In this document: one piece after another, positions 8,001-64,000 of the stretch | Numbering within the stretch: position 1 is the stretch's first letter | How the letters are laid out: each line of letters begins with the position of its first letter | Source: Bispira polyomma | Taxonomy: Eukaryota | DNA: 64,000 nt | Assembly (NCBI GenBank): GCA_965649765.1 | Contig: OZ287750.1 | Coordinates: 14,198,001 to 14,262,000, forward strand | Direction: 5' to 3' | Notes under the pieces: generated by a model | The model's input: only the letters and a program-made list of their open reading frames with translations | Databases searched by the model: none | Told to the model about the DNA's origin: nothing | Position numbers and translations under genes: made by a program

Positions 8001-8361
8001 AGTTCTGATTATTTCTTTTCTGCAAATACAATTTGTATGCTGATATGATATGAATTAAATGCCTACGTCATGTACATTACTGTACTATAAAATCATTGCA
8101 TTGAAATAGGTAGTAGAGCAGTCAGTTTACCAAGCATTCTTCTATATTGGGATTTGGAGAAGCTGGTTGTATTAAGAGGTTGTAGAACAGCATATTTGAT
8201 GATTTGTTAAGTATAAACTATAAATTGATCCTCAATTGCAAGCTACTTTTCTAATAAATGAACCTTGGTTATACAATTAACTAAAAGAAATATTATTCGC
8301 TGGAAAAATCTGTGAACTTTTATTTGATTGCCACAATTTGTACAAGCCAGCATTGACAGTA

Positions 8362-10920
8362 ATGATGAAGCAAATGACAAACTATAAACGACCAAGAATG
8401 GTCACTACGCCAACAGTAAGGAGCATCAGCATATCACCTCTACCAAGCAAGGCATCTCTAGTAGATGACATGGACATCTATACTGCATACACGTCTACTG
8501 AGCTTTACAGAGCGCTGCGACCTTTCCTCACCAATCTCAGGTTCTTTGGACTTCATCATGCGAAGAAATACAATGTAAAATCACTGGAAAACTGCTCTTA
8601 TGAGAAAACAACAACAAGATTCTGGAAAGACATTACACTATCTCAGTGCTACTCATATCTGATAACTATTCTGATTATATTGAATCATCTCAGATATTAC
8701 TCAGCATTCAGTAGTGGTCCCAGTTTAAGTCTGGATTTTTTTTCAAAAATCACATTTTGTGCATGGACTTTACTATGCACTGCTAATGCTGTAGTCTGCT
8801 TAAAAGCGTCGCACAGCTATGAATGTTTGCCAGAGTTTTTCTTAGAATGGCAGAAATTTCATTCAAAGGGCAATTTTTGCCTTAGATTTTGCAACAAAAA
8901 TTCTTATGTCTATAGCATTGTATGCTGGATTTTAATCATCTGCAATATGAGTTCCACCATTTACATGTTGTGCCTCACAAATCTTTATGATACTTGGTTG
9001 ACACCTTTTGATAAGACTTCTCCTTATGTTAACATATTATATGGAGTAAATATCTTCATTCTCTTTTACTTGACTGCGGCTTGGATATTTCCTATTGCAT
9101 TGCAATATATTATCTGCAAAGTCCTTTGCACAGAATTCAAGAGATTTAACACATGCTTCAGAAAACAGCAGATTGAGAACAATTATGAACTGTTTCCAGA
9201 CTTTGAGAGTATGCGGCAAAAGCATCAACGTCTTTGCAAACTTGTTGACCATGCCGATGATTTTCTAGCTTTGTATCATGCTGGTGTTGTGATGTTTACA
9301 CTGATATCAATGTGCATTAATATTTTTAGCATTATATGGCATACAGAAGTTAGAGAAAACCTTGTTATTCTGTGTGTCCATCTCTTCTGGATTGTCTGTG
9401 TTTCCTTTAAAATGGCATTTGTCTGTGTGGGAGGAGCATTGATAAACCATCAGGTTAGATGTTTATCTATCACATTTATAATAATTCAATTCCTTAGAGT
9501 CAATCTATGATATATAATTCTGCATTTAGTAATATAGCACATGGGTAAGGCTTTGTTTTGTAGAAAATGTGTAGCCATCAATTCTAACAATAACTGAATG
9601 TAATTTATTTGTATACATCTATGTCAATGACTTGTGTTTAAATAGTGATTACTACTCCCCCACATAAATTATGTAAATACTATCAAAGAATGTATATATA
9701 ACTCATTAGTTTTAACCAATGTATATTTTATTTGTATATGTTTAAATACATATTAATTGTATATACAATCAGTGTTAATATTGTCAGATAAATAAACTGG
9801 GCATTTCAATCCAGCACAGTTATTTACTGTATACTCTATAAACAATTTTTAACTCTTTAGCTATTGAAACTCGATTTTAGACCATTAAAAAGTTCCCAGC
9901 TAATAGATATTTTTTGTAGACTATCCCTATACTATCAAATAATAAATAATGCATGTACTAATTGTATTTTGTGGTCTCTTTCAATAGGCCCATGTCATAC
10001 ATGATTGGTTACATGACTTTAAGTTGGATCGAGTTTCTCCAGATCAATTTGCACAGGTAAGCCATATTTATATTTATGATTACTACAAAAAAATATTCAT
10101 CAAGCACCACTACCTTTCAGGATTCAGTCATATTATAGCTTTTATTAAACACTATACACACACATACAAACTTTTGGCATATGTGACTTCTCAGTCTCAT
10201 ATTTATTTTAAAATTTTAAATTTTTACAACCAAAAGTTATTGGCTTTTTCTGATCAGTTGTAATTTGTTAAACATCTTGCCTGATTTTTTTGGTAGTCCA
10301 CAAAACCGACTTTGTATTGTGTTGAGTTTGTGGAAGATTTCTATTCTTAATAATGTAGTCACTGTTCTGATTTAATCATTAAATATTTTGGGTGATTTTT
10401 TCACAGCTGAAGATGTTTCAGGCACGTGTTTCATCCACTCAGATAGGACTAACTGCAATGAAGATGTTCATTATTGACAAACCAACCATACTGACAGTAA
10501 GACTTTAAACCCTTTACATGTGAAAAACTAGTGTAGTTTTGTGCTAAATATATTAAAAGGTTTATCACTTAGATATACAGTAACATTTGTAGTTATAAAT
10601 AAATACAAAAAAATAAGGTATAAATTGTTTTTGATTACTCTTGCACTAAAACTTCAACTGAAATTTAACCATTTGTTTTTTTATTATACTCCAGAATGCA
10701 ATCATATGCTATATACTATTGAACTATCTAAATACCATACTGTTCAAAGAATCGACATAATATAATATTATCTTTTTTATAATTTCAGATATTTGGTCTA
10801 CTGGTCACCTACTTTGTGATTATTGTGCAGTTTTCAACAGCAGTTCCCAGTACAGGCTTATCTAACTGTAACTGTACACAGGCCTTCTATAATGCAACAT
10901 TGCAGTGTTTTACAGTATAA
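8362..10920 (+). CDS. Gustatory receptor-like (GRL/7TMIC) gene B1, ~460 aa; exons 8362-9453, 9988-10056, 10407-10496, 10789-10920
   Basis: Open frame through four exons with canonical phase-0 GT-AG introns. The last exon, IFGLLVTYFVIIVQFSTAVPSTGLSNCNCTQAFYNATLQCFTV*, carries the TYhhhhhQF motif. Homologous to gene A throughout (e.g. CLPEFFLEW, MRQKHQRLCKLVDH). Confidence 0.92.
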
Positions 10921-12489: not shown

Positions 12490-13633
12490 TTGTTGCAGCA
12501 AAGTAATGTCAGATAAAATCTCACAGGTTCTGTGTGATGTATAATAGATGTTGTAACATAGTAATGTCAGATAGAAATCTTACAGGTTCTGTGTGATGTA
12601 TAATAGATGTTGCAGCAAAGCAATGTCATATAAAATCTCACAGGTAATGTGTGATGTATAATAGATGTTGAAACATAGTAATGTCAGATAGAAATCTTAC
12701 AGGTTCTGTGTGATGTATAATAGATGTTGAAACATAGTAATGTCAGATAGAAATCTCACAGGTAATGTGTGATGTATAATAGATGTTGTAGCATAGTAAT
12801 GTCAGATATAAATCTCACAGGTAGTGTGTGATGTATAATAGATGTTGAAACATAGTAATGTCAGATATAAATCTCACTGGTAATGTGTGATGTATAATAG
12901 ATGTTGTAGCATAGTAATGTCAGATATGAATCTCACAGGTAATGTGTGATATATAATAGATGTTGTAACATAGTAATGTCAGATATAAATCTCACAGGTA
13001 GTGTGTGATGTATAATAGATGTTGAAACATAGTGATGTCAGATATAAATCTCACTGGTAATGTGTGATGTATAATAGATGTTGTAGCATAGTAATGTCAG
13101 ATATGAATCTCACAGGTATTGTTTTATGTATAATAGATGTTGTAACAAAGTAATGTCAGATATAAATCTCACTGGTAATGTGTGATGTATAATAGATGTT
13201 GTAGCATAGTAATGTCAGATATGAATCTCACAGGTATTGTTTTATGTATAATAGATGTTGTAACAAAGTAATGTCAGATATAAATCTCACAGGTAATGTG
13301 TGATGTATAATAGATGTTGTAGCATAGTAATGTCAGATATGAATCTCACAGGTATTGTGTTATGTATAATAGATGTTGTAACAAAGTAATGTCAGATATA
13401 AATCTCACAGGTAATGTGTGATGTATAATTTATAATGTACATTTTTTTTGTTTGTTCCTATCATGTTTGTATATTATAAAAAAAATGTCCTTTGAGTACG
13501 AATAAACTATATGAACTATATAAACTATTATAGATATTGCAGCATAGTAATGTCAGATATAAATGTAACAGTTAATGTGTGATGTATAATAGTTGTAACA
13601 TAGTGATGTCAGATATAAATATCGCAGGTACTG

Positions 13634-13810: not shown

Positions 13811-14250
13811 AATAATAATAATAGTTTATTTCGGACTTATAGTACATAGTCAATACACGTATGACAAACAGACAATAAAATAGACAAAATATTTGCAACA
13901 GCACTGTATATATATATAGAAAATAAGAGGTAACTTTACATGTACAATTCAATTCAAATTTTATCTTCACATAGCTATTTTAATATAACTTTTATTTCAT
14001 AACTTGTAAATCTTGCAGTGTTATTATTCCTTAGATACAGTAAGTCCTTAATATCTATAATATTACATTCATTTCTCTCATTTGTACCATTTTTACAGGT
14101 CTTAAAAATCTGGTTATTGTAAGTCTCAAAAAGTTTATCTTTACCAATATCGACCTTTTTTGACTATTACTATTTATTTAGTAATAGTCGTTAACTCAAT
14201 ACATCTATAGATAACATCGTTTGTGCTAGAAATACAACTCTGAAAAACTT
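13811..14250 (-). mobile_element. 5'-truncated LINE 3' end
   Basis: Minus strand reads ...IIDIKDLLYLRNNNTARFTSYEIKVILK*LCEDKI*, resembling a LINE ORF2 C-terminus, followed by AATAAA and a (TAT)n tail ending near 13811. Confidence 0.5.
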
Positions 14251-14835
14251 TCGGGGGCAGTGTTAAGGCATTGCCCTTGTCAGTCCTCCACGACCTTAAA
14301 TCTATGAGGGTACCAGTCTGTTGTTAACGCAGGTAGAAACTTAAGTCAGTAAATAAACAAACCCCCTGTTGTTAAGTAAAAATGCAGGTAACTAAATCTG
14401 ATTGGTTGAAACGTAAAGGATAGGGACTTATTAAGTAAACAAGCTCAGTTTGAATTTAGCCACAGACAAGTGTGGCAGGAACTTTTCTGATTTCTTCTGT
14501 GATTTCTTGCTGATTTTATTTTACATGATTTTACAAACAGTTATTTATATTATGTGTGGATTACATACAAGGACTATTTTAGTGTTTTATGAACATTCAA
14601 CATCGACCGTGTCTTACAGCTTTCCACTCTGACAACCTCAGGCTTGAATAGCCCTCGGGCTGGGTATAAAGGGACGAAATTACTACTAATTCATGCACAG
14701 TTTATTACATTTCATTCCCGAGTTTTAGTCAGGTACTGGAGTGGTCAGATCGGAGGGCTGTGTGTCTTATTCTTGTTTTCAGTGACTATATGCAAAAAAA
14801 AAAAAATTGCAAATAAAACTTTAACAGACTAAAAA

Positions 14836-15963
14836 ATGCCTCAATCAAAGTTGCTGTGTAAGAAGTGTGGACATAGACATGTTCCCCCGACGGGAAAAAA
14901 ATGTAATTATGAAAAACATTTAGAAACTGACACTGAATTAGTGGCAGTGGAAGTTTGTGCAGTGAAGGACACTTCTAGTAATAAGCACGGGCGGCACACT
15001 CAGGCAGGGAAGAAGCTGACGGCAGAGACAGATGATGGCAACCAGGATATCCAGAAGCTCATTCTACAACAACTCCAGAGAGTAAACTTGAGGCTGGATG
15101 CAGTGGAAGACCAAGTGGCTGATTCCAGGACCAGACGCACAAAGGATAGGACAATTGGAAAGTTAAGTAGAACTGTATTAAGTCAGAATAATAATAAGTC
15201 AAGTACAAGTGAAAAGACCTCAGATTCAGATTCCTCAGACGAGGAGCAGGTCTTGCCAAATCTTTCGACTCTGAGAAGTTCCTCTTCATTTCAGCGTCGT
15301 GTTAACGATAGATTAAGAGAATTGAAAAAGGGTAGTCAGAGTGCAGGTACTGACACGTCAAGTAAAGTAAAATCAAAAAGGGGGGGGGGGCAATTGACGT
15401 TGTGGTCAAAAATAAAGTATCTTGGCCCCAAGAGGCAATTTTTAGTGGGGGTCACCAGAAACAGGTTGTCTTATGACCAATTGTCGTTAACTCAATGGGT
15501 TCAGGGTTTCTGCAAAAATATTATGGAAGAGGCAGACAGTGATAAAAAAGATAGAATGATAATGTACATGTCAGATCTCATGGAGGATGCAACCGATTTC
15601 ACATGGCAAGGGGCTAAAGCAGCTCATGCTGTATTGTTGTGTGAAATGGAACGGGGCACCCTCACATGGGAGGACAGTACTAGGATTGATCGCATTCGAA
15701 GAGCTCATGCTCAGAAGCATACAAATAATCATTTTGGCAGTGGGAAAAATTGGGAAAGAAAACAAGACGTTAGCAACAAAAAGCCTTGGTTTTGCAAATT
15801 TTTTCAAATTGGGACATGTTAGCATGCAAAAGACCACGAAATTGGTGGCAAATTACATAGACACATTTGTGCACACTGTCTGGCTACAGGTAGGACATTG
15901 TCTCATCCTGAGAAAGAGTGTTTGTTCGCCAAGAAAAATGGTCAGCAGGCAAAAAACGATTAA
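14836..15963 (+). pseudogene. YR retroelement 1 gag-like ORF
   Basis: N-terminal CKKCGHRH...C and C-terminal CKFFQIGTC*HAKDH...HICAHC...HPEKEC Cys/His motifs. One in-frame TAG at 15820. True stop TAA at 15961-15963. Confidence 0.8.
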
Positions 15964-18395
15964 AGGGCTGTCCTCAGAGTCTTAAACTGGAAGGCAGCTG
16001 GATTAGTGATAAAAATCAGTGTGTGGTTAGCAAGAGTAAGGACACAGCTGAGGGTTTTAGTATAAAGAAAAAAGCAGTAAAGATTGGTGCTGAACATAAA
16101 GGTACAGACGTTGTACGTAATGAGATGTTGTCAAAGATTGATAATTCTGTTGTTTTTAATCAGGCTAGAGAATTGAATAGTCTTAAAGGTTTTGATGCAG
16201 ACGTAAAACATTCTCAGTGCAAAGCAAAGTATAGTGATAAATATTTCTACAGTAGTAAACTGAGAAGACAAGACGTAGACAGTCTATTGGTTCGTTCTTT
16301 AAAAGATGTCTTGTGTACATTCAAGGCTATAAGTTGTGATGTCAAAGCTAAGTCATATGCTAGTGTTATAAAGACTAGACCAAAAAGAAACTGGCCACGA
16401 CAAATGACTGGGACTGAAATTATAGCGCAAAAGGTCACACAGGCCAAGGTCAAGACATGTAATGACAGTGAGAAAACCAATAAACATAAAGACAAAGTTC
16501 AAGCAAATGACGGGGTAAAGCAAACCCCTCCACCTAGGTTGGTAAAACAGGTGGAAAATGACAAGTGTAAAGCAACAAAGGGTAAAACTAAATTACTGTT
16601 TGATGTAAAAGGCTTGGACGATAAATTCATAAATTCCATTCTGTTTAATGACAAACGCAAATCGAGATCCAAACAAATGGACATAGATTGTCAGATTTTC
16701 GAACAGTTTAAAAAACAGACTCAATTTGAATTTGGCTTTATTCCTTTGAGTGATCCCATACTCCCGTACAGTGCACATAGTGTCAATAGTGGTATTGAAT
16801 GTCCAATTAAGCGACACTATGAAGTAAAAAAAAGGGGGGCACCCAACTTTATGGGGGCGCGCATACCTGTGAATTCCCAATTAAACATAGAACAATGGAA
16901 AAAATGTTATTAAGTTATTGGGATAAACAACTTCTCCAGCTACTGGAGTTTGGCTTTCCGTTAGGTTTCAATAGAAAGTGTCAACTGAAAAGTGACGTTG
17001 ATAACCACAAATCGGCTAATGAATTTGCCAAAGACGTTGATGTGTACAGTAACGAAGAAAAAAGTTATGGAGCCTTAATAGGTCCTTTTGAAAAAAATCC
17101 AATTGAGAATGGTCGCCATTCTCCATTCATGACACGTCATAAACCTAATTCCAACAATAGGCGAGTGATAATTGATTTAAGTTGGCCCAAGGGGTACTCT
17201 GTTAATGCGAGAGTTGACAAGGACAGTTACTTGGGGGCTGATTTTAAGTTAAATTTTCCCACTATTGATGATCTGACTAGGGAGCTTGTCAAGTTGGGCA
17301 GAGGTGCACACATCTATAAGCTAGACCCAATGGACTATGACCTACTTGGTTTGACTTGGCAAGGAACCTATATTGACACTTGTCTTCCCTTTGGTAGCCG
17401 TCATGGCAGTCAATTTTTTCAACGCGTTAGCGACGCTGTGCGTTACGTCATGCGTCAATGTGGTTTCAGCATTATAAATTATATAGATGATTTTTTGGGG
17501 TACGAAACGCCCACAGTAGCAAAAAATTCCTTTGAATGTCTTTACGAAATAATGGAAAAGCTAGGAGTGACTATCAGTCAAAAGAAACTGGTAAGCCCAA
17601 GTACACAAGCAGTGTGCCTTGGTATTTTGATAGACACAATAGAAGGTACGGTAGCCATACCTGAGGAAAAATTAACAAAAATTAAATACACGGTTAGCCA
17701 ATGGCAGACAAAAACGTTCTGCACCAAAAGACAGCTACAGTCCCTATTAGGACAGTTATTGTACATTCACAAATGTGTCAAGCCAGCAAGGTGCTTCCTT
17801 AATAGAATGTTAGAATTACTCAGAAGCGTTGTGAATCCAAATAAAATCGAATTGACAGAAGACTTTAAGCGTGATTTAAGATGGTTCCAAAAATTTCTTC
17901 CTGAATACAATGGAATATCCATGTTTGGTTACAAAAGGACGGATCACACATTGGAACTAGACGCTTGCTTACAGGGTCTGGGGGGTAGATGGAAGAATCT
18001 AGTATATCACCTCCATATTCCTCGTAATTTTCAAAACCTGGAAATTGTACATTTGGAAATGATAAATATTCTTGTGGCCTTGAAATTATACGTATTGGCA
18101 GGGTAAAAAAGTATTGATAAAATGTGACAATCAAGCGGTAGTTCATGTCCTTAACTCAGGTAGGGCAAGAGACCCTTACTTAGCAGCCTGCGCCCGAAAT
18201 GTGTGGTATTTGGCAGCCACTTCAGACATTGACTTACAATACGTCCATGTACTAGGTAGAAATAATAGGGCAGCAGACTTATTATCTAGGTGGACAAATT
18301 CTGTGAACAATAAAGAAGAACTCGAGACACTGGTGCCCAGTCCAGTTTGGCTAGAGACATCAATAGAGTTAACACAAATAGACAGTATGTTATAA
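15951..18395 (+). pseudogene. YR retroelement 1 pol (N-terminal extension, reverse transcriptase, RNase H), frameshifted
   Basis: RRVIIDLS, CLPFG, YIDD, LGILID (RT). LELDAC, HLEM, IKCDNQAVV, NRAADLLSR (RNase H). Frame breaks near 16900 and 18100. Confidence 0.9.
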
Positions 18396-18463
18396 TTTAT
18401 GTAAAAGGTGTAATAAGTTAGGTATAGATTAAGTAACAATGGATACTATGCTTTGTTTTGTAG

Positions 18464-19461
18464 GACCTGAAACGTTGAAAGTGCTACAGTCAGGAGCTAA
18501 CAACAGGCTTCACATGGCATTCAGGCCCAAGCCAAGGAAATGTTATCAAATCCTGTTCAGGACATTCATTGCTTTTTGTTTGTGTACTGGGCTTCTGTTA
18601 GAAGCTCTTGAAGTAAAAAGTATTATGTCTTTTCTGGAATATCTGGTAATAAATAAAGTTTCTGTCCATATGATAGCAAATTATGTGTCGGCTTTGAAGG
18701 CAATGAGTGTAGTGTATGATTTGCCATTTCAACTGTTTGATCACCCTAAAATAAAGTATTTTATAAAATCTCTCAAAATCAATAGAGCGCATGTAATTGT
18801 AAAAAGAAATGTATTGGATGTTGATACACTGGAGCAGTTAATAAGGCACTGTGCGCACATTAGCAACTCATAGGTATTCAAGGCTATATTCCTTACAGGT
18901 TTCTTTGGGTTTTTCAGGCTGTCGAATCTGGCACCACATTCTGTGAAAGAGTTTGACTCTTCACGTCATTTCACAGGTGGGGATGTGTTTTTTCAAAAAG
19001 ACACTGTAAAACTGCTGCTAAAGTGGTCTAAAACATTACAGAATCGAGACAAAATTCAAATAGTGACTCTTCCTAGGTTAAGAAAATCATTGCTATGCCC
19101 CTTTAGGGCCTTAAAAAACCTCTTTAAGCTATATAGCCCAGGAAAGAATGAGCCTTTGTTTCAATATTGTACAGTGACTGGTAGGCAGGTGGTTACAGAC
19201 TCAAGGGTAAGGAAAATTCTGGCAAGACGTAATGAAAAATTGGGCTGTCCCTCAAATTTCTATACTTTTTATTCTTTCCAACGTTCAGGTGCCACGCTAG
19301 CTTATCAAGCACAGGTCCCAATACAACACATTAAAGAGCATGGCACCTGGGCGTCAGACTGTGCGTGGACTTATATTCAAGCAAATTCAAATAGTACAGA
19401 GGTGGCCACCACCTTTCAGAAATTGTCAGGTAATGCTTCTACCCCTACTAGTTGGGCTTGA
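18464..19461 (+). pseudogene. YR retroelement 1 tyrosine recombinase
   Basis: GFFGFFRLSNL (catalytic R), LKWSKT (K), YSFQRSGAT (degenerate HxxR), HGTWASD..WTY (H/W and Y). In-frame stop at 18871. Preceded by acceptor TTTGTTTTGTAG. Confidence 0.88.
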
Positions 19462-20343
19462 GGCTTTCTTTGCGTATAATAATTTTAAATTATAAACCAT
19501 TGTAAAAGTTGAGGTCAACTGAATATAAGAATATTGGCTTTTTAAATTCACAAGTAGGTAGACTTAAACTGGGACAGTTTAAGTTTACTCTGGTGACCAC
19601 TTAAGTTAGGCTCACCCTAAACTTATTTGTTCAGGTGTTCACGTTGAAGTTAAGAGCACCTTAAATTCAGAACTCGAAATTATCTTTAAGTTAAAACTTA
19701 AAGTCAACACTAAGTTTAACCATAAACTGAAACTGGAAAGTAAACACGTGACCTCAGCTTAAGTATTGAATGTTGTAATATTTTATTATTGTATACCTTA
19801 TAAAGAATTGTACATAGCTAGTAGTTTAGAATCTATATATTTTACACAATTTTACATACATATTTTATAAAATAAAAAATATATACACCCTCATAGATTG
19901 TTATTCTTGACTTGGAAGTGGTAGGGACTGCAATAATAGATGTTGTAACATAGTAATTTTAGATATAAATTCACATTTAAAGTGTGATGAATGAGAGATC
20001 TACTAGATTAAAAGTGTTCACTGAAAAACAATCATTAGTTCTTAGTCTTACCAGTCTTATTTTCAATTGTTTTAAAGACTACAGGGTTATGGCAAATCAA
20101 CAATTTCATGATAACCATAAGTAAACACTTATTTAGAATCATATGATAGTTAATATGACTCAAGAAAAATGTAAGTATAGTATCAAAGTGTCAGCAAATA
20201 TTATGACTTCTGCGTTACATGGACAACTGTAGGTTTAGAAAGAATGCTAAAAGTAGGGTAAGTTTGAGATAGGGTCCCCCGTACTACTTTTTTAGCACCT
20301 CTTCATTCTGTCATAGTGTGACTTTGATCAAATTGTATGCAAG

Positions 20344-21109: not shown

Positions 21110-22346
21110 TGTAGCGTGCCTGAGGTGCAATTGGAGCTTATAGGGCAAACTAGTTGTATAGAAAGGCTATTCTATATAACAAACATTTATTTACATAATA
21201 ATATATATACATATATAGCAATGTTTTACCAGCAGTACTGGGGCTAAAGTGGTAAGCAAAGCACAATATAGGTATAGAATAGTAGTATAAATCGAATCCC
21301 TATTAATGAAACAAATAGACCATACAGTATGAAATTTATACATACACCACACTACAGAGGGAACTTACTGCCTGTCAGGCGCTTGGACCTCGAATCATAC
21401 TCTATCCTAGACAAGGACTGGTTCCATACTATACCAAATACTAAACACCACAGGATCAGATCCTCATGAAATGTAACCGACCTGAAGACCAACCTAAACT
21501 ATAAGTATTTATCCATACAAATAAGGTCTCAGTCTAAATACCATCTGACCAGGTTTCACGCTGCCTCAGAATAAATAACCAGGTCTCTCACTACAAATAA
21601 AGAAGTCAATTATATCTACATTACATTAACACAAAACCTCCATTTCTGAAATAAACGATTCACAATTATAACTCAATCATTCTCTTCCATACTTCAGGTT
21701 CTACCCTGAAATAAAGAAAATAGACGGGCTTTATCCTAAAAATTAAACCTCAGGTTTGACCCTGAAATAAAAGACCAAAAATATTATACCATATTAAACT
21801 AAACTTCAACAACATTAAAGTATTTCTTCAGGTTTCACCCTGAAAGAAATCTTAACTAACAATATAGTAAATTAATTAATCATTCTAGAAGTATCTCTTC
21901 AGGTTTTACCCTGAGAGAAATATTAACTATCTAAACTACAAAATATACAAGGTCTTACCCTGACATTTTCTATCTGAAGTGGCTGTTGATTTCCCTTGTA
22001 CCAATTCAGCAAAGAATGAGGGTTTCACCCCCTTATATACTGAATGCCCAGACAGAGGAAAACTTCTCAAACTATGTCACACCCATGTTTGACCCAAGGC
22101 ACCTGATTGATTTAAAATTTAGTATTCCCCAGATTTTGGAGAGACAACTTCCTTTACCGCGTGATGTGAAGTACTAAATACAAACACCCAAAAACCTTCA
22201 TTTCCAAGCTACAGTGACCAAAAATGATGTTATAAAGGTATGTAACTAACAATTATAACTCTTTTACAGTAATACCAAGTCAAAATATTACCAAATAAAC
22301 AAATAGATAAAATATCGTAACAGCGACGATATCGTTATGCGCTTCA
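21110..22346 (-). repeat. 3' LTR (1237 bp) of the Gypsy element
   Basis: TGTAGCG...CGCTTCA. Adjacent PPT-like GGGTTGAGGAGTAA on the minus strand. Internal CAGGTTTNACCCTGAAA repeats. Matches 28378-29089. Confidence 0.9.
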
Positions 22347-22994
22347 TTACTCCTCAACCCACCAAAAAATAGCTCGTCCCGAGCTAGAATTCCTGGGAAA
22401 ATAAAAATAACCTACACATATTAACGAAAATACAATACAATTACAGTAAATGCAACATCAGTAGGCTACAGACCAAAATAACTTCCATAACCTAGATTCA
22501 TCATATGTTGCAAATGTTAAATGCAAATATTATTATACAAAGAACAGTGTGTACATAGATAGATAGATAGAATTTTTTATTATACTGACATTATGTTGTA
22601 CAGCATTAATATAATATCAGATATATAAAATAACAGTATGCTAGATCTGACTTCCGAGTATCTTTAACCCGTTAGGCCTTTGCCGTGGTTTCAAGAACCA
22701 AGAAGACATTTGTAACGTACAATTATTATTTGAAAGTTAAGGAAATTTATATATCCAATACAATTCAAAAAAATGTTATAGCAAAATTTTGAAAAAGTTA
22801 TTCTTGACAATTTTAATCACCAAATTTTAGCACAAATTTTATTTTCAGTTATTCTATCTTTTATGCTTTCTTAATAGTCATTGACAGATTTAAACACTAT
22901 TAGAAACAGTTATAACTATATTTAAACTTATGTTCATACACAAAGTTTATGTCAGTCTTGGGTTTCTTAAAAGCTGCTCTTCAGACAAGCCCTT

Positions 22995-23661
22995 TCAAAA
23001 CAGAGGGGCTGGAAAATTAATGTCTATGTTTTTTAACTTCCATGGGCGTACATTGGAGGTTCGTATCCTGGCATCAATTACTGGCAGATCTGGTTGCTCA
23101 TCAAACAACAAGACGAAGCCCTCCTCCGGTTCACGTCTCAAGTCATCCTTCTCCTCCATGGGTGTGTAGGCTGTGACAAAATCCCGCCTGTTCAATCTAA
23201 GGGGATTGAAGTTATCCAAGACAGGTCAAAGTCTCGTGGCAGTACATAACCACCCAATCACAGGCACCAGGGGTATCACAGGTACCAATGGCGTACCAGG
23301 AACATCGACATCTAGAATCATCGCAGTCTCCGGGAGAACATCATGAACTTCGGTGCTCGGCTACACCATGGGGACCACAACCGGAACAACATCTGAAACA
23401 GCCACAGGGACATCTCTGGACTCCTCAGTGTCTGCCCCCTCTTCCTCTTAGGGATAGGTTCCCCTACATCAAATTGATAATGCACAGCCAGTACATGCTT
23501 ATCAAAAGCCTCCCAATCAAATCGAAACCAAAGTTGCAATCTAAATGGGGACAGCCTACTTATCACCATGTACCCCTTCTCTATAGACTTTAGCTTGTTC
23601 CACACCACTAATCTTGAAACCACACTTGTCACAGTTATTGGGGTACTTTACACTTTGGAAA
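22995..23661 (-). pseudogene. Degenerate extra ORF of the Gypsy element (C2H2-like and Cys-rich)
   Basis: After acceptor TTTAATTATCTTCTTTCAG, pieces in shifting frames read CDKCGFKISGVEQAKVYREGVH, CPHLDCNFGF / DWEAFDKHVLAVH and RCPCGCFRCCSGCGPH...CDDSRCRC...CDTPGACDW. Confidence 0.55.
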
Positions 23662-23870
23662 CTGAAAGAAGATAATTAAATATCTCAAATTATCTATTTA
23701 TGGTACCCTTAAAATTAACCTAATGTAAGAAAGCAAGGTTTCACCCCAGCAAGCTTAAATATTATTACTATCTTATATTGTCTACTACTGGTCTTCCTAG
23801 TCCTAACTAATAATCTTTTGAATATTCTGGCAGCTTAGTTTTTCTGCCTGTCCTGGTAGTTTGCTTTGGC

Positions 23871-26800
23871 CTAGATACGACATGATCTATAACAGAAATG
23901 TCTATCGTTTTCAGACACAGGTACAGATTGTTGCTGCTCTGACACCCCTTCTAGAACTACAAATGAAACAGAATTTTCTGATGTTTTACCATCATTTAAT
24001 TCATTCTCCTTACCAGCTTCCCACCCAGGAGTTACACAACAAGTGTCAAATGTTTCACCATTCAAGCACTCCTCTACAGTGTTAATACGTTGCCCTGAAT
24101 CCACACTATCGTCTATCCCAATCAAACCAGAATCAGTTCCGGTAGTCATATTATCATCAGGTATCTGAGAAGTTTTCAACCAATTATCAAGCTTGACATG
24201 AGCAGGTTTTAACCGGTCATGATCAATATACTTGACACCAGAACTTGGTGATTTCTGAATCTGATACACTAAATCCGATACTTTTCCCACTACTAAAAAT
24301 GACCCTGTCTAGGGAAGATGAAACTTGGAACCAGTGCTTGTCTTACGAGACAAATTATGGAGAAAAACTGTGTCACCTACTTCATAGCCCTTGAAATTTT
24401 TCCTTAAATCATGTTTTTTTTCTGTCTATCACTTGACTGGAGCATTTTTTCCCTAGCTAAATCATGCACCCTATGTAGATTCTGACTTAAATCTTTGACA
24501 TAAGATACACTAGAGCCTACACTTTGTACCTCAGAAATGCCTTTCCCTAACTATAAATCAACCGGCAACTGAATATTTCTGCCAAGCATCATTCGAATTG
24601 GGCTTTCACCAATAGACTCATGTATAGAAGATCTATAGGCCATCATGACCAATGGCAGACAATCATCCCAATTCCTATGGTTCTCATCGACTACCTTGCT
24701 CAACATATCATACATAAACATAAAGTCCTGTCAAACCTCTCAACAAGCCCATCACTCTGTGGATGATAAGGTGTAGTGCGGGTTTTCTCTATCCCAAAAA
24801 CCTTACCTAATGATTGAAACAATTTAGACTCAAACTGAGCTCCTTGGTCACTATGGATTTGGCCAGGAACTCCAAACCTTGAAATAAAACCTTGTACCAA
24901 AACATCTGCGACAGTACTAGCCTCTTGATGTGGCATACCAAAAGCTTCAACCCAACGAGTGAAATAATCACCAATGACCAGGACATATCTGTTACCACGA
25001 TAACTTTCTGGTAAAGGACCTAGGATATCCAAAGCAATGCACTCTAAAGGAGCACCCACATTGTATTGCTGCATGGGACCCCTAAATTTCTACACTGGAG
25101 CCTTTCTCCTTTGACATACTGCACAACTTTTGCACCAACCTATTATGTCCCCCTTATATCCTGTCCAGTAAAACTGACTATGCACTTTTGCAAGGGTGCG
25201 CCTAATGCCTAAATGACCAGAACTGGGTTGATTGTGTAGTTGCACTAGAACCAAATTCCTTAGAGAATCAGGTAGAACTAACTGATATAACAAGCCACTT
25301 TTCCCTGTTGTCCACCACTTTCTATACAAGACACCATCCCTCAAAACTAACCTATCCTATTGGGACCAGTACGCCTTCACAATATTACTTTGAGGTGCTA
25401 TCTGAACCCACCGTGAGCCCACCGTGAGCCAACGCAATGATCCATGATCACTTCTCACAACAAACGGAACACCATTCAGATAGATATGAAAATGCTTCAA
25501 AGCATCCACAACAGCTAAAAGTTCCCTTCTAGTGACACAATAGCGTCTCTCAGTTTTTGACAATGACCTACTGTAATACCCTATGACTCTTTTACAGCCG
25601 TCTTCCTCTTGGGATAAAACAGCACCAAGACCCACTCCACTAGCATCTGTATCTAGAATGAATTTTCCTTTAGGATCAGGGTAGGCCAAAACAGTAGCTT
25701 GCACAAGTGTTTCCTTTAACTTAGAAAAGGCTTCCTTACACTCAGAATTCCACTCAAATCTAATGTTTTTTCTCAGTGAGCCTATGTAGGGGTTTGGCTA
25801 TAGTGGAGAAATTCCAAATGAATTTCCTATAGTAGGAACACAATCCTAAAAAGCTTCTAAGTTGTTTCAGGGATTTAGGAGTTGGCCAATCTGATACCGC
25901 CTCAGTTTTCTTGGTATCAGTAGCTATCCTATCCTTTGACACGAGAAATTTACTTTCCTACAAAACAAGTGACACTTCTTAGGTGACAACTTCAAACCAG
26001 CTGCTCTTAATCTACTGAAAACCTCTCTCAAATTTTGCAGATGTTCCTCAAATGTGACACCCTTAACAATGGTATATCATCCAGATAAATAAGACAAATA
26101 TCAGGGTATAACCCCTGAAAAATCCTATCCATTAGTTTATCAAAGGTACCTGGTGCATTAGTCAACCCGAATGGTATGACACAGAACTGAAACAATCCAC
26201 TTAAACTAGCAAAAGCAGTTTTCTCACGATCCTGAGGATCCATCTCTATCTGCCAATAACCACTCTGCAAATCTAATGTAGAAAACCACCTAGATTCCCT
26301 CAGGGACTCAAGACAATCTTGCGGATGTGGTAAAGGATAAGAATCTTTTATAGCTATGTCATTTAACTGGTGATAATCTATGCAGTATCTAATTGAACCA
26401 TCCTTTTTGGTAACTAACACAACAGGGGAAGCCCAGATGACTCAATCACACCTTCCTTCAACATTCTTCCTATTTCCTTACGCTCTACATGTCTCTTAGC
26501 TAAGGGTAAATGCCTAGGCCTTTGCTTTATGGGAGGATGATTTCCAGTGTTAATTTGGTGCTTGACTAGATGAGTTTGACCTCTATCAATCTTAGACACT
26601 GCAAAAAGATCACTATAAGACATAAGGAGAGATTTTACCATACACCTCTGATCCTGATCCAAATTATCAGAACAAGCCTCAAATACTGGTCCTATATGCT
26701 CAGGTAAAATCATCTCAGCATCACTCATTGAGACTGAATCAAGTTTACAACAGTCTGTCTCAGTCACTTGCCTTACATCCTGTACATGACTACAATATCC

Positions 26801-27432: not shown

Positions 27433-27449
27433 GCTAACTCTGGGCCAAG

Positions 27450-28368: not shown

Positions 28369-28377
28369 AGTGGGGTA

Positions 28378-36155: not shown

Positions 36156-38460
36156 ATAGTTTCGCCCTTTTTATTTTGCCTTTCGTTCTGATTATGGATC
36201 GTTCAGTATACCCAGATTTCTTGCGACAATAAAATATCTAATGACTGCCAAATAGATTTCACAGTAAAATATGTATGTATGATATAAAGACAGTCAATAT
36301 TCAAATTTTATTCTGTAAAATGGGTCAGAAAGTATATCAATTACTCTTTCATGTTATATAAATCTTAAAATTTTAGCTTAAGTAATTACATAGAAATCAT
36401 AATTTGATCAATGCCTAATTATCTTAATTTTTTTTAGATTTTTACAACGATTTCTGTACAAAGCTCAACTAATATTCAATGGATCTGAAAACTGTTTGGA
36501 CTGTTAAAAAGCACAGAATAATAGCTTTCTGTTGATATAAAAACGAAAATTTAGGGTTAAACATTAAAAAAGGTACTGCCATTCAATGCAGTAAATATTA
36601 AGTAAAATTCTATTTTTTTGCAGGATATTTTCGCGATACCAATTCATCATTGGTTTTAGCAACTTCTTGTGTGCTACTCTTCAAAGGCAGGCTTGAAATC
36701 CAGCCTTATTTTCATTGACTGGGTTTGCGTTCTCTGATTGGCCATAGAAATACTCTTTACTACACCCCATTCATAAAAACGGACACACGATCGTATTTCA
36801 GCCAAATCTGCGGGATAGACCCACAGGGGCTAGCTAGATCAGTGCTGCAAGTAATTTGTTTAGTCCAGGATCTTATCCCCTGAGCTAATTGGTGAACTTT
36901 GCACTAATTGACCCCTGTCTTCTCGCCATTTTTGTGGGGATATCACTTTTAGTATTGAAGTCCAAAGGGCGACAGCGCCATTTTTATTTTTTACTTTATT
37001 TTGTTTGTGATTTTAATTTTCGTTAAGTCTCTGGAACTATTCATGTTGTGCTATATAACTATATTTGGGATTGATCACACAGACGTTCTGGACACTATAG
37101 ACGAAGTCACGACTACAGTGGTGTTTTGTACTCATACTTTGAGTCTTGTGTATATGCTTGCCTGAAATCTGATAAAGGGACGTATCCCCTCATTATACTA
37201 TCATATTAAGATCTAATCTACTAATATATCTCTACATCTAAATTAATAGTCAATAGTATATACACAGGTATCAAAGCGCGAGTGTTCTTATATTATTCAG
37301 AGAAAAACAAATGGCTCCAAGAAAAACATATGATTGCCTTAAATGTGGCACAAACCATCAGAAACCTATCGATAGTAACTGTAAATGAGCAGCTAGACTG
37401 CTTGCTGACGACGAGGATGTGCCGAACTCTGCTTCGACTAGTGAAAGTCAAAGTCCTGGTGATATTAATATCCAGATACTAAATGAACTACGTGCTCTAA
37501 GTGGTCGAATGTAAAAATGATAAAACAATGAACAATGAACTTTGTACTGAGAGGTATAGTGAAAAACAATTTCATGGTAGAATTGTATATAACACTTTTG
37601 CTAACATTCAAGCCAGTGCGCACTGGAGGACAGACTGGGCTTGGTTCAAAAAGAAATCCTACGCGGACATTTTAAAAAAAAGTGGAACGCCAGGTAATTC
37701 ACAGTCAGCATGGAGCCCCGACTTCTCCAAGTCGGGGGACATCTGTAACGACCAGTCCTGCACCCCGACCTGCTGCACTGCTGCCTGATCCAGAAGATGT
37801 CCTCGTACCCACCATGGACACACTTAGATCCTCATAGAGCCTACAGACTGCTGTGGACACACGTCTCAAGGAGTTAGCTATGATAAATGAGACAGGTACG
37901 TTCAAGTCCCAGAGGGGGGGTAGTGATACGGTCTGGGTGAGGGAACAGGTCCCTTGGCCACAGAACTTTATTCTAGGTGGACATAGTAAATCTAGACTCT
38001 CGTATGATTCATTAACAATGCCCTAATGGGTCGCTGGTTTTTCAAACATCATTAGAAAAGAAAGCAATGTTGCAACCAAAAATTTAATGTTAGAGTACTT
38101 ATCGGACCTCATGGAGGACGCTCATGACTTCTCCTGGAGTGCGGCTAAGGGAAGTCATGCAGTTCTATCCTGTAAAATGGAATAGGGGAAGGTGTCATGG
38201 GACGAGTCCCGTAAACTCGACAGAATTAGGTGGGCTCATGCCCAGAGGGCAATTAATTCCAGCCAAAACTCTAGTCAAACACAAGGCCCCTCCAGGAAAA
38301 GTCATGACAAGGGTACTCCGTGCAGGTTCTTCCAAAAGGGTACTTTCCCCCCAAAAGGGGACCATGAAACTAAAGGAACTACTTATCTGCATGTGTGTAG
38401 TACTTGTATATTGAATGGGCGGTCGTTTTCCCACCCTGCAAAGGATTGCAGAAAAAATGC

Positions 38461-38495
38461 AAAAAAGGAGTAAGGCACTGCAGCAATGCAGTGCC
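38461..38495 (+). promoter_or_regulatory. Putative -1 ribosomal frameshift signal
   Basis: In-frame A_AAA_AAG, 6-nt spacer containing the gag stop, and perfect hairpin GGCACTGCA-GCAA-TGCAGTGCC. Equivalent A_AAA_AAC at 15951-15957 in copy 1. Confidence 0.6.
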
Positions 38496-40594
38496 CTTAT
38501 CAAGTCATAGTGATCAAGGTTATTCTGACAAAAGTACTAGGTGGAGTGAAAACATAGTTTTCAATGATACAAAAAAGTATTAACCATGCATGTTTTACCA
38601 ACCTTTCAGGACAGTCTGACAGCTCTGTCAGCAAACAGGTAACCAAAGTGATTGCTAGGGGTAAATCACGTACCATTGTCCCTTCCCCTAGAATTGATGT
38701 GAAACCTGTCAGTAGGGGAAAAGCAACAAAAACTCGCAGTAATGGGGATGGGGGAAAAGGTGTGAAAACACACTATTATACAAAGCCTCCTCCTCTTTCA
38801 CACCTGCGAGAAGGTGCCAAAGATTTTGTCCCCACATACAATAGGTTCTCCCCTCTTTCTGTGGGTCATGGTGTAATTGACAATGGGACTATTCCCATAA
38901 CAAAACCTCTTGATACTGGGAAAGAAACAAAAGGCCTCAGCGAATGCAAAAGTAAGGGCTCACCCAAAACTGCCATAGGTAAAACAAGTACACTGGAGGC
39001 TGACAAATATGATCTAGAACTCCAACTTAGACGTAAACACAGGGACCTTATAAGGGATGCCCATAATGTCCCCATATTCCAGCAATGGAATTCACAGACA
39101 ACAGACAAGTATGGCTTTGTTCCATTAGGTGAAATTAAGGTCCCTCCGTCAGATAAAAGGGTTGCCTCACAGGCTACATTAATTGAGTTACATACTATTA
39201 TTAGTGCAGCTAAGTGTCCCAACTTTATAGGCCCTCAAATTGAGATTAAGTCAGAACTTAAACCAGATGTCTGGGAAAAATACCTCAAAAAGTATAATTA
39301 TTGGGATTCCCAACTACCCTTTTTAGTCAGATATGGTTTCCCCATGGACTTTAAGCGGGACAGTCCTCTCACCCATGTAGAACAAAACCACAGCTAAGCG
39401 GTAGATTTCCCTAGTGACATTGAGGCCTATTTGAAAGAGGAAATTAAATTTTGGGCTATGTTAGGACCGTTTGATAATGCTCCCATACAGAACCTCCATG
39501 TATCCCCATTTATGACGAGGGAAAAACCGGGGGCCCCTCACAGGCGTGTTATTATTGAATTAAGTTATCCACATGGTGAGTCAGTTAACACTTCTGTAGC
39601 AAAGGACAGATATTTAAACACACCTTTTGTACTCACACTTTCCATGATTGACACAGTAACCAGCAAAATTCAGCGCCTGGGTTGTGGTACTCACATATAT
39701 AAGATTGACGTTAGTCGGGCGTTCCGTCACGTAAAGATGGACCCCGCTGACTATCACATGCTAGGCCTCAAATTTGACAAATACTATGTAGACTCTTGCC
39801 TCCCCTTCGGATTTTGTCATGGGAGCGCCATTTTTCAATGCCTCAGCGACGGTGTCAGATACATTATGAAATCCCAGGGTTATGACGTCACTAACTACAT
39901 AGACGACGTAATCGGTTACGGTAACACTCAAGAGAGCAGACGTTCATTTGATACATTGTACCACTTGCACCAAGTTGTACCAAACGGGAACTCCAATCAC
40001 TTCTAGGTAAACTACTGTACGTTTCAAAGTGTGTCAGAGTATCATGTGTCTTCATAAACCGTATGTTAGACGTCCTTAGAGTAGCAGGTAATAGCAAAAA
40101 AATCACAGTCACAACTGAATTTAGACAAGATATCAACTGGTTTAATAAATTTCTGCCTGTGTTCAATGGCACTGCATTCTTCGACCATGACCCTACCACT
40201 GACTGCATCCAATTGGCTGCTTGTCTGGAAGGACTCTGGGGCAGGTGTAATGACCAAGTATATGAGTACTCCCTTCCCCTGGGCTACCTTGACCTTACTA
40301 TTGTGCATTTATAAATGCTCGACATATTAGTAGCTGTACGGGTCTGGAAGTCCCTATGGGCAGGCAAAAGACCAGTAATTCAGTGCGATTGCGTCTGGAA
40401 ATATATAACCCAAGACCATAATGCCTTGGTTTTCCAGACCCTCCTTTCACACTCCACTACCACCTAGTTGGGCTTATTTACATTTATTCCTTACTATATA
40501 TTATACAACTGTGAAATGTCTAAATAATAAATGTGTGGGGCCACCTTACCACTCTACTTTTAAACCTTGAACTTAATTCACAACTTGTTATCAA

Positions 40595-60289: not shown

Positions 60290-63200
60290 GTGATATCCTA
60301 CCAGTGGAGGGTCCATTTTTTATGCCCTCTTCGTGTGTACAAGTACCAACATCGTCACAGAGCGTCATGAAACGTCACAATCGACTGCATCTTTATGGAA
60401 ATGACATCACTTTAATACAAAACTGCCGCGCTTTCCGTGTATATTGTTTAGGTATGTTGGGCGATGTTAGCATGCGTAGGTGTGACCAGGCCATAACCAG
60501 TAACAAAACATGTAACTCAAATTTTAACACACCCTACGTATCTTACACTACTACAATGGTATATGGACTTTGTATGAATTTTCTGTCTAAACTGTGATGT
60601 TGAAAGTAGTTTATTCATTTGTCCATGTATCATACAATTTACATTTATTAAATTATAGCTTGTATTGTACAACCAATAAAATGTTAACACACACTGATGC
60701 CTGCTGATAATACTATTTTGTTAGACTATCTGGTATTAGACAATATGTGCCTTACAGGATAACTGCATCTATTTCGGCTCCATATAAATACTTCACAATT
60801 TAAGCTGGAAGATGAATTTCACTAATTAACAATATTTAAGAAATTCACTTTTCTTAATTTTCACTTTTGGCCAATTTTTAGTTAAAAGATTAAATTTAAA
60901 TTTGAGATTTAATTTTCAATTTTGTCTAAGCTCAATCGCTAAAATAGCTAAAAAGTTAAAATAATTACTTATACCGTAAGGTAAATCAAAATGAAATATA
61001 CTCAGTACAAGTAACCAACCTTTATCTATCTATCTATCTCCTTTCCTCAGGTATTTGCATAGACAATTGTGTGACTGAGGGATCTCACAAATGGAGTTAA
61101 TTTGCCTGTAAGAAGGGCAAGCCTAAACGTTGTAGCAAAGAAGGTTGTCCCAATATGTATTTAAAGCCTAGTGAGATTAAGATGGAGGTCAGTGGCTGCT
61201 GGAGGATGTGTCCAAGTAGGGAGATGTGTATCTTTTTCTATTTTAGTCCTGACACCTACTCAGCCAATACCTACAAACCAATTGCGGGACCTTTTGTCTG
61301 GCCTACTTCTTACTGTAACAGGTTAGACCACCTTGGGTTTCATTTGTGGAACGATTCTAGAATTTACTGGACAGAGCACAATCATGTTGGATTTCAGTTT
61401 TCCTTTTGCAAAACAAAGTGTCACCCGACTATTGTCCGACCCAAGTCAGACCCCAGCAATACCATCCCCCACAAAGGCAAAACTAGTGGGGGGGGGGAAC
61501 AGGTTAGACCACCTTGAGTTTCATTGTGGGAGTATTTTAGAATTTACTGGACAGAGCACAGTCATGTTGGATTTCAGTTTTCCTTTTGCCAAACAAAGTG
61601 TCACCCAACTTTTGTCCGACCCGGGTCAGACCCCAGCAATACCACCCCTCACAAAGGCAAAACTAGTGGGGGGAAGCATTGTTAGGGGCGAGGCTGGGTT
61701 CAGTTATGGTATGGGTACAAAGGCTCAGAGAAATTTGGATGACACTGAAAATCAATTAAAGTTATACAACAGGTTACAAGCTTTAGCCTTGCCAGACTTA
61801 ATCCATACTATGGTTAGTAATGACGTGAATCAGACAGTGCAAAGGGGTACTGAGTGGCGACCAAACACGCTTCGATACAGTGGGTACTAAAATTACTAAG
61901 AAGCTTGTCAATAAATGCCAGGCCAGTAGTGTTGAAACAAAAAGTTTCAGCACTGACGACAGTCTGGGTAATGATAAGTATGCCTTGGAACTTAAACAGA
62001 AGGTCAACAATAAAGAATTGCTAAGTAAAGCGTGAAATAACACAACTCACTGTGAATGGCATCACCAGAACAAGGTTGAGTATGGTTTCATTCCATTATC
62101 TGACTTAGCGTGTAGGCTTTGGGACAGTAAGGCCTCGAATTACAGCTCTGACATTGTGCAAATGCACCATAATTGAGAAAAAATGGGGGGCAACATTTTA
62201 AAGGTTTACAGATTCCAGTAGAATCACAATTAAATCCTGAAAAATGGTCTCAATATTTAGAATCCTACTAGGATTGGCAACTTCCCTTTCTGGTGAAGTA
62301 CGGTTTTTCCCTTAGCTGTGAATCGAGAGAATATTGGCCAGTAATTGGATGGCAGTAATCATAAGTCAGCTACTGAATTTTCAAACGACAGGGATACATA
62401 CTTGAGTGAGGAATGTAAGCATGGCACCATCTTGGGGCCGTTTAATAGTCCACCTATAGAAAATATGCACTTTTCTCCCATGATGACTCGTAATAAATCA
62501 AGTTCTAGTAACAGGCTGGTTATTGTCAATCTGAGTTGGCCAGTTGGGCAGTCAGTCAATTCTGGGGCTTCATCCACTAAATACCTTGGTTCGGATTTCT
62601 TATTCTTATACCCGTCTGTTCACAATCTAACTAGTGAGGTCTCCAAATTTGGCAGAGGCTGCCATATATTTAAGGTTGACATAAGCCGCGCATTTAGGCA
62701 TGTGCCTATTGATCTGGACAGATGCCTCCCCTTCGGTTATCAGAACGGATCAACTATTTTTCAGCGAATTTCTGATGTCGTGAGATATATAATGGCCCAG
62801 GAAGGCTTCCATATATACGCGTACATTGACAACTATCTATGTGTGGCGTTACCTAGTAAAATAACCAAAATTTATGACAGATTACAGGCTCTCCTAGCCG
62901 GAACGGTTAGCCCCAAGAAACTCGTTTCCCCTAGTACTGAGGTAATATGCCTAGGGATTTTAATAAATACAGTGGATTTTACCATTTCCATTTCTTTGGA
63001 GAAAATCGGGGAAATTATAGCATTATGTCAAATGTGGGAGGGGAAGCAAACTTGCACCAAGAGAGAACTACAATCACTGCTTGGGTCCCTCTTATAAGTA
63101 TCCAAATGTATAAGATATGCTCGCGTATATCTAAACAGAATGTTGGCATTGCTAAGAGATAATCATATTAAGAAAAGGTTTTCAGTAACAGTTGAATTCA

Positions 63201-64000
63201 AGGGACCTCCACTGGCTTACAACACCTTCATGCAACAATTCAATGATACCAGTTTCTTTGCCCATAAGCCCATAGACGCTCAGATAGAGCTTGATGCATG
63301 TCTTACTGGGAGGTGAAGATATCTGCTGGTCAAGTTTATAAGTTGGCTGTGCCTGATTGCATAACATTGCCTCTTTGGAAATGAATAATATCCTGGTCGC
63401 TCTGAAACTCTGGGCTTAGATGTGGCAAGGCAAAAGAGTCTTTTTTTAAATGTGACTATGGGGGTCAAAAATAAAGTGGCTGATTTGCTTTCTAAGTGGG
63501 ATAAAACGAAGAATAATTCTTCATTGTTGCATGATTGGGTGGGACCTGTCAGATGGTTGCCCACTGATTTAACCCTTCTTGACGTGGATAACAGTATTTA
63601 ATTGGTGTACTTTACCTTTGTATTTCAGGTGCTAATCCATTTGAAACCCTCCACACTAGTATGGCTTGTCGAAGAATGCACACTGCTCTGGCTTCTTCAA
63701 CCACTTCTGCTTACAACAGCATGTTCAGGTTGTTTCTGGTCTTTAGTATTTTCATGAACTGGATAGAGTCTCAGGTGAATGTCTTTCAGTTGTTATCTTA
63801 CTTAGGATTTCTAAGCTTCAACAGTGTGTCTCCTTCTCAAATTGCCAATCATTTATCTGCCATTGAAGCAAAATGTACATTGTTTCACATTAGAGTGGAC
63901 ATTTTCTTAGATCTAAGGGTCTCGTACTATACCAGGGCGCTACTAGTCAAGAGACCCCTCCAGGTTAAATTAAAGAGTGTATTTGATATAACACTCATGT
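60290..64000 (+). mobile_element. Tyrosine-recombinase retrotransposon copy 3 (runs off the window)
   Basis: DKYALELK / YGFIPLSDL pre-RT segment. RT with KVDISRAFRH, CLPFG, YIDN. RNase H IELDAC...NKVADLLSKW. Open YR N-terminus from 63629 (GANPFETL...YNSMFRLF...IANHLSAI). gag not recognisable; left boundary uncertain. Confidence 0.85.
61197..61675 (+). repeat. Dispersed repeat with a ~180-bp tandem duplication; inverted copy at ~55530-55730
   Basis: AACAGGTTAGACCACCTTG...AAAACTAGTGGGGGG occurs twice. Reverse-complement homology to 55530-55730. Confidence 0.8.

Follow-up and report, generated by a model that had tools for sequence, protein, structure and literature searches.

Predicted Gag-recombinase splicing and a U2-complementary acceptor in Ngaro-like retrotransposons of Bispira polyomma

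The route by which tyrosine recombinase (YR) retrotransposons express this enzyme is not settled. For Ngaro elements (order DIRS), as defined in the available parts of PMC9210276, PMC3783388 and PMC7192593, the published expectation is that YR is probably made by a -1 frameshift at its overlap with pol (Poulter and Butler 2015, as quoted in the available part of PMC13003380). Here we describe a Ngaro-like element, copy 1, and its family in the genome of Bispira polyomma, in which sequence comparison argues for a different route. Copy 1 lies with two further copies (2 and 3) in the window, a 64,000-nucleotide (nt) stretch of contig OZ287750.1 (positions 14,198,001 to 14,262,000, forward strand). 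One transcript would give Gag, Gag-Pol by a -1 frameshift and, by a predicted splice, a fusion of the N-terminal half of Gag to the recombinase (Gag-N-YR); in one of two clades, clade 1, the acceptor includes a complement of U2 small nuclear RNA (snRNA). We assign this overall explanation a probability of roughly 0.8.

Retroviral env and foamy virus pol are expressed from spliced subgenomic mRNAs. Spliced subgenomic messages are also known in long terminal repeat (LTR) elements, such as the short gag RNA of the Arabidopsis Ty1-copia element EVD (available part of PMC5580714). As in these systems, one transcript would serve as the genome and, when partly spliced, as the message for one protein. 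In those systems, however, the spliced product is Gag alone, Env or Pol; the splice predicted here would take out pol and join half of Gag to the enzyme of integration. The available parts of PMC7192593, PMC6681497, PMC9341512, PMC8547959 and PMC12477816 do not mention splicing as a natural event in YR elements, and our literature search, whose reach did not extend to key reviews, found no report of it or of the U2 match. The unbulged complement to the U2 branch-recognition region at the clade-1 acceptor is, as far as that search goes, new here. The family offers a precise and testable alternative to frameshifting, with predicted junctions, and implies that YR open reading frames (ORFs) as annotated lack about 150-190 N-terminal residues.

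Donor and acceptor sites in gag and in front of YR

The original prediction, made from the window alone, proposed that the recombinase is translated from a spliced mRNA. The donor was placed at CAG/GTACTG (15346/15347) in copy 1 and CAG/GTACGT (37895/37896) in copy 2, and the acceptor at ...TTTTGTAG/GA (18463) in copy 1 and ...TTTCAG/GT (63628) in copy 3. All of these sites were found again. Exon 1 (14836-15346) comprises 511 nt, that is 170 codons plus one base, the intron 3117 nt, and the fusion, by coordinates, 502 amino acids (aa). As the prediction itself had cautioned, no site occurs in all three window copies: each is decayed, the acceptor is missing from copy 2 and gag from copy 3, so that the window alone could not decide the question.

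We therefore turned to the 1.04 Gb genome. A search with the YR of copy 1 gave 10,560 candidates, of which 150 were scored and 80 were fetched as clade 1, chosen for closest relationship or for long open frames. A second search with the YR of copy 3 yielded a further 150, and 40 of these were fetched as clade 2.

When the copies were aligned on the YR frame, a script placed the acceptor AG of 116 out of 119 precisely at the phase-1 position. The number fell to 115 when L039 was struck out by hand, because its homologous AG is mutated and the +/-3 nt refinement had slid to a neighbouring AG; L009 and L017 were excluded for want of N-terminal homology, and L055 and L110 had their offsets adjusted manually. 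The AG was kept in 35/36 clusters at 85% identity, and the exon bases following it vary freely. A gag anchor was readable in 92 of 122 sequences, 87 of which had a phase-1 AG/GT donor by script and 86 after the GC donor at the homologous site of L078 was noted (28/31 groups). No out-of-phase AGGT was found within 40 nt of the donor, and the A-GGT-A context surrounded only 5 of 212 other gag glycine codons, examined as a control. Both sites were intact in 83 of the 90 copies holding both regions (84 by script, with L039 removed by hand), and the median intron was 3078 nt. The GT...AG ends, the pyrimidine tract and the matching phase are those of a U2-type intron. Clade 2 has conventional acceptors and stronger donors. 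The conservation of GT/AG and phase, which the original prediction had asked to be tested genome-wide, was observed in these copies. Its claim that the donors of copies 1 and 2 are homologous did not stand: they fall in different codons, 8 and 3 before K-S-K-R-G-G, and each donor is the one that its lineage conserves (7-8 codons before that motif in clade 1; 3 codons in clade 2 and copy 2).

Similar sites were present in distant relatives. Of 16 metagenome loci with 26-45% identity, 9 were non-redundant and allowed the YR start to be read. A phase-1 YAG stands 50-59 nt ahead of the first conserved YR motif in every one of these 9, and in 6 no methionine precedes the YAG. The gags of distant elements L129 and L141 have AG/GTAAT at the same place as the donor. 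Further, at least 120 YR proteins of other assemblies were listed, 51-65% identical to those of this genome. In 52 of the 54 that extend past the split site, the split codon encodes G, D, E or V, i.e., starts with G. Both sites, their matching phase, and their presence in two divergent clades and distant genomes support a recombinase made through a spliced Gag fusion, and we regard the donor-acceptor splice as highly probable.

We weighed whether YR instead starts at its own ATG beside the acceptor, either because ribosomes reinitiate once pol has been read or because an internal promoter supplies the message; the motif described below would then be a promoter or initiation signal. An in-frame ATG lies upstream of the acceptor in 19 of 26 clade-1 subfamily representatives, and in most copies pol stops only 22-78 nt upstream. 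The original prediction had likewise named in-frame ATGs as possible starts, and those at 18439, 18448 and 63661 are indeed in frame. However, as an alternative start the ATG is not conserved: it is absent from 7/26 clade-1 representatives, 8/10 of clade 2 (present in 2/10) and 6/9 distant families. Where present, it mostly belongs to the U2-matching motif, in which G-U-tolerant changes on the sense strand indicate RNA pairing. Further, a start at this ATG would leave the conserved in-phase donor unexplained. We consider this alternative unlikely.

It is still less likely that the acceptor is served by a different donor in the non-coding 5' leader, or that neither site is more than a cryptic by-product. 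In favour of this are a CAGGTA conserved close to the 5' end and an acceptor-like TTTCAG before gag. However, transcription probably starts downstream of the CAGGTA, no conserved donor occurs between this motif and gag, the family copies have no conserved ATG downstream of the acceptor either, and the phase is fixed. A 5' leader intron was dropped on account of the position of the donor-like CAGGTA.

In a structural model of Gag, the donor falls directly after helix 144-163, in a low-confidence linker ahead of the helical core. The fusion would therefore keep the zinc knuckle, the coiled coil and two helices, and drop the core and the C-terminal knuckles. Residues 54-98 of the L072 Gag were modelled as a trimer with a score of 0.70 (best control, 0.07), with runs agreeing in at least 93% of contacts and a predicted local distance difference test value of at least 78. 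The mark for this score was passed by 21/30 solved pairs and 0/23 single chains from microbes, and by 17/29 and 0/30 from eukaryotes; just 1 of 7 without an older solved relative passed, a model of three copies departs from the calibration, and coiled coils may reach the mark simply by resemblance. A fold search of the Protein Data Bank with Gag gave no match at E<=0.001. We suppose that a minority of transcripts is spliced to give Gag-N-YR, whose retained coiled coil may let it join Gag assemblies and so reach the complementary DNA.

Traces of the spliced product were sought in DNA. A junction pattern for intron-less genomic retrocopies gave 5 matches, compared with 3 in the control, none junction-like by sequence, and none of 41 genomic matches across the L072 acceptor stretch starts at the acceptor. 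No annotated Gag-YR fusion was present among the longer YR relatives, the longer Gag-N relatives or the best 150 of 644 Gag-N matches, a blank that weighs little as these collections are mostly DNA gene calls. Three sequencing runs behaved like DNA contigs; among the 15 of 104 joints listed for them, none linked 15346 to 18464, which speaks neither for nor against the splice.

Complementarity to U2 snRNA at the clade-1 acceptor

In clade 1, a conserved non-coding motif lies immediately before the AG. Comparison with the host U2 genes showed that it is complementary to U2 nt 28-45, the branch-recognition region. A run of 14-18 nt ahead of the acceptor pairs with U2, and no bulged A was found in any of the 26 representatives. 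Over U2 nt 28-41, these gave 307 Watson-Crick pairs, 52 G-U pairs and 5 mismatches of 364, with no bulge. The mean duplex energy was -21.4 kcal/mol, compared with -8.8 for shuffles (22/26 beat all 200 shuffles) and -10.6 at 19 other acceptor-like sites in the same elements. When the whole U2 was considered, the best pairing site spanned nt 34-39 in 25/26 representatives. Further, the motif was the best U2-pairing 40-mer of 280 windows in 69 of 79 elements and the second best in the other 10.

On a tree of 79 copies, the motif changed 1.8 times per column, compared with 2.4 at second and 9.5 at third codon positions of YR. Its transitions kept pairing in 16 cases and broke it in 5 (p=0.013), and the purine-rich part of the match is conserved too. 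The match ends 6, 8 or 9 nt before the exon, which corresponds to two frames relative to YR in the fetched subfamilies; a further spacing, which adds a third frame, occurs in this genome only in L158. Because the motif stands in different frames, the constraint is not on protein. The motif pattern had 250 matches in the genome (some double-counted) and 4 in the control, and 17 of 20 hand-picked new matches were followed by YR, indicating that it marks these elements and not host introns generally. Proteins of other assemblies agreed with this: among 36 with enough upstream residues, a full 14/14 match was encodable in 18 and at least 13 in 26 (the scanned window included the split residue), compared with 0/1439 and 8/1439 control peptides, and the motif occurred in all three frames. 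We conclude that U2 probably pairs functionally at the clade-1 acceptor.

The motif position opposite U2 G34 (window 18449) is T, a G-U pair, in 79/79 copies, and the peptides of other assemblies fit C, which is unexplained. In two clade-2 subfamilies (L094, L111), a stretch 20-45 nt upstream of the acceptor outscores all 200 shuffles in U2 pairing; the pairing is weaker than in clade 1 and its site lies farther upstream. The U2 snRNA genes form a tandem array (G000:C11:29.51-29.65 Mb) with a unit of about 1.29 kb.

In the established model of branch selection, a U2 duplex that lacks a bulged A should not permit branching. The clade-1 pairing has no bulged A and would cover the pyrimidine tract and the adjacent candidate branch point, dampening the splice. 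U2 in the unbulged register would be a dead end masking the tract and the neighbouring branch point, and might keep most of the RNA unspliced, as genome and as Gag/Pol message. We lean slightly towards such dampening over a boost to splicing.

Stronger U2 pairing generally helps splicing. The splice could be real and the match an unusually strong positive branch site, or a captured antisense U2 relic supplying the acceptor, and not an attenuator. The U2 antisense sequence has its own ...TTAG end at the corresponding position, and normal human branch points are accompanied by extended U2 pairing (available part of 10.1101/185868). However, this pairing beyond the core branch helix is a weak statistical signature upstream of a bulged A, whereas clade 1 has a continuous helix of 14-18 bp on both sides and a bulged A in 0/26 representatives. 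Among host chemoreceptor introns of the window, TACTAAT, which has the extra A, occurs at 3/5 sites listed, in downstream introns of three paralogs. Further, the clade-1 helix reaches over the pyrimidine tract to within 6-9 nt of the exon, and keeps the purine-rich part, which is not expected of a mere relic. We find a positive branch site or relic possible, though less likely than not.

The closest described parallel to an attenuator is the purine-rich C element of foamy virus, which overlaps the branch point and represses a strong acceptor, so that unspliced RNA survives (available part of PMC5294762). Both are cis elements at an acceptor, and that of clade 1 is likewise proposed to preserve unspliced RNA. 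However, the C element blocks SF1 binding, whereas the clade-1 element is a direct antisense match to U2 snRNA. We propose, quite tentatively, that in this lineage of animal retrotransposons a built-in antisense U2 adjusts how much RNA stays genomic and how much becomes recombinase message. It would act as a branch site lacking the branch nucleotide, holding U2 in a trap at the element's own acceptor, and possibly arose through a captured U2 fragment; the Gag-recombinase fusion would co-assemble by a shared trimeric coiled coil. The unbulged complement would be a naturally occurring RNA element, tried by evolution, at a 3' splice site, and could show a new way to tune partial splicing.

Several points weigh against these conclusions. 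The splice is predicted by comparing DNA sequences and not from RNA. The clade-1 ATG beside the acceptor is present in 19/26 subfamilies, young intact ones included. The clade-1 donors are modest matches, mostly AG/GTA followed by variable bases, and L133 and L135, 2 of the 4 distant gags examined, are unlike the others and have no clearly homologous donor. The U2 match is absent from 8/10 clade-2 representatives, and is thus not required by the family. A candidate conventional branch point stands beside the motif in just 17/26 representatives, compared with 89/416 control windows. Further, the copies were hand-picked from the top 150 matches of each search, their shared ancestry means that counts overstate independence, and the p value above rests on 21 changes.

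Expression of pol and relation to Ngaro elements

At the gag-pol junction, a slippery heptamer in the gag frame was kept in 58 of 65 readable gag ends (20/22 groups) and is followed by a hairpin; Gag-Pol is therefore likely made by -1 ribosomal frameshifting. We examined whether YR could be translated in the same manner, through a programmed -1 frameshift at the pol terminus, as proposed for Ngaro. The -1 relation is the commonest between pol and YR (15/31 groups), and some young copies overlap by 7 nt. However, among the 86 copies whose pol end could be read, YR and pol overlap in just 36 (13/31 groups), by at most 20 nt, and the overlap is -1 in only 25/86; the relation is +1 in 8 groups and 0 in 8. 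No pol-YR overlap contains a slippery heptamer, unlike the gag-pol site, and in the intact families L042 and L061 a stop codon in frame separates YR from pol. With inconsistent overlap, a variable frame and no slippery site, this route is largely refuted for the family and we regard it as very improbable. The separate pol frameshift signal, the U2-complementary stretch in the acceptor and the lineage-specific donor positions go beyond the original prediction.

The order gag, reverse transcriptase (RT)/RNase H, YR was confirmed in family copies. Intact copies are about 5.7 kb, with gag of about 375 aa, pol of about 815-890 aa and YR of about 335 aa. No methyltransferase follows RNase H: pol stops about 35 residues past the RNase H motif in 7/7 copies listed, with no Dam match. 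Long inverted repeats were not found either, so that the methyltransferase that marks DIRS1-like and PAT-like elements and the inverted terminal repeats with an internal complementary region of DIRS1 are both lacking. Most copies carry a 5' hairpin and short end complementarity only. Split repeats (A1-body-B1-A2-spacer-B2) occur in L006 and L075 and are absent from copy 1 and most others; the 5' part is repeated after YR in 16/72 near-full-length copies, one being a flanking tandem repeat.

By the definitions in the available parts of PMC9210276 and PMC3783388, we class the elements as Ngaro-like, an assignment by gene content and order and not by phylogeny. They share with Ngaro the gene order, the lack of a methyltransferase and, in a minority of copies, the A1...B1-A2-B2 repeats. 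The frame relation of YR to pol varies in fungal Ngaro (available part of PMC3783388), so that a -1 overlap is no strict criterion. Unlike Ngaro, the family overlaps YR with pol inconsistently, its YR is predicted to come from a spliced Gag fusion and not from frameshifting, most copies have no second A-B block but a short hairpin and end complementarity, and the copies of this genome have no hydrolase ORF.

Units of A-spacer-B of about 1 kb follow some copies (L006 and L075, about 7357-8420). Most full copies are without long repeats, and how their ends are restored is unexplained. Some distant elements have an extra ORF after YR (L133, 4139-4813; L131, L139), which in L133 resembles, by eye, the SGNH hydrolase of some Ngaro elements. 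No relative was found in the viral contigs searched or in a single-protein metagenome scan, and an Rfam search gave nothing credible.

Features of copy 1 and other sequences in the window

Table 1. Positions of the retrotransposon features in the window (all plus strand; splice sites and exons are predictions).
Feature	Position	Strand	Remarks
Copy 1	14250..19930	+	Decayed full-length (~5.7 kb) Ngaro-like YR retrotransposon; gag - RT/RNase H - YR, without methyltransferase
5' terminal hairpin with short segments complementary to the 3' terminus (19887-19930)	14251..14312	+	Putative function
Likely promoter	14401..14450	+	Reverse CCAAT box 14401-14405; initiator-like TCAGTT 14445-14450
Predicted exon 1	14836..15346	+	Gag residues 1-170: CxxC-H-C knuckle, coiled coil, acidic linker, conserved helix
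Predicted phase-1 splice donor CAG/GTACTG	15344..15352	+	End of the Gag N-terminal module, ahead of the Gag core
gag-pol slippery heptamer (15951-15957), then stem-loop	15951..16000	+	Likely -1 frameshift making Gag-Pol
pol (RT/RNase H)	15958..18395	+	Frameshifted in copy 1; entirely within predicted intron 15347-18463
Non-coding U2-complementary stretch	18438..18461	+	Host U2 snRNA nt 28-45 (to ~nt 20 if extended), no bulged A; overlaps pyrimidine tract
Predicted phase-1 splice acceptor AG	18462..18463	+	AG kept in 115/119 copies
Predicted exon 2, tyrosine recombinase	18464..19461	+	Decay stop at codon 136; catalytic motif partly decayed
Copy 2	37311..40470	+	Divergent, decayed; donor 37895/37896 (clade-2 position); acceptor and almost all of YR deleted
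Copy 3	61850..64000	+	Clade 2, without gag; canonical pyrimidine-rich acceptor 63627-63628, no U2-complementary stretch

The ends of copy 1 were set from its sister copy L020 and from loose ends at 14249, where many different flanks occur in DNA contigs. Its Pfam matches are RVT_1, RVT_3 and Phage_int_SAM_5 (weak), and tblastn to intact relatives agrees. Besides the decay given in Table 1, the reading frame of copy 1 is shifted in the G-run that follows the donor. In contigs, its ends (14100-14500 and 19326-19928) are covered several times deeper than its interior, and abundant non-autonomous derivatives of the element are likely.

In the promoter region, 15 of the 17 clade-1 copies examined have the initiator-like motif, and 14 have ATTGG 44-45 nt upstream of it; we take these motifs to be a CCAAT box and an initiator. 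The conserved CAGGTA at 14330-14335, upstream of the likely transcription start, is probably a promoter element. The conserved acceptor-like TTTCAG lies 35-55 nt 5' of the gag ATG (14770-14782), with no conserved donor accompanying it. The clade-1 leader holds 2-8 upstream ATGs.

Arrays of a 59-bp satellite occupy 12491-13429, 42761-43070 and about 19933-20000, one unit standing directly after the 3' end of copy 1. A decayed LTR retrotransposon on the minus strand (21612-29046) has matches to rve, RT, RNase H and the integrase C-terminus, and its terminal repeats are 91-94% alike. A cluster of paralogous ORFs of about 400 aa lies at 413-1645, 8281-9510, 32395-33618 and 51077-52261, the first of which matches Pfam 7tm_7 (chemosensory receptor). 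Finally, 57877-59400 contains a nested inverted repeat resembling a fold-back element, with arms up to 99% complementary.

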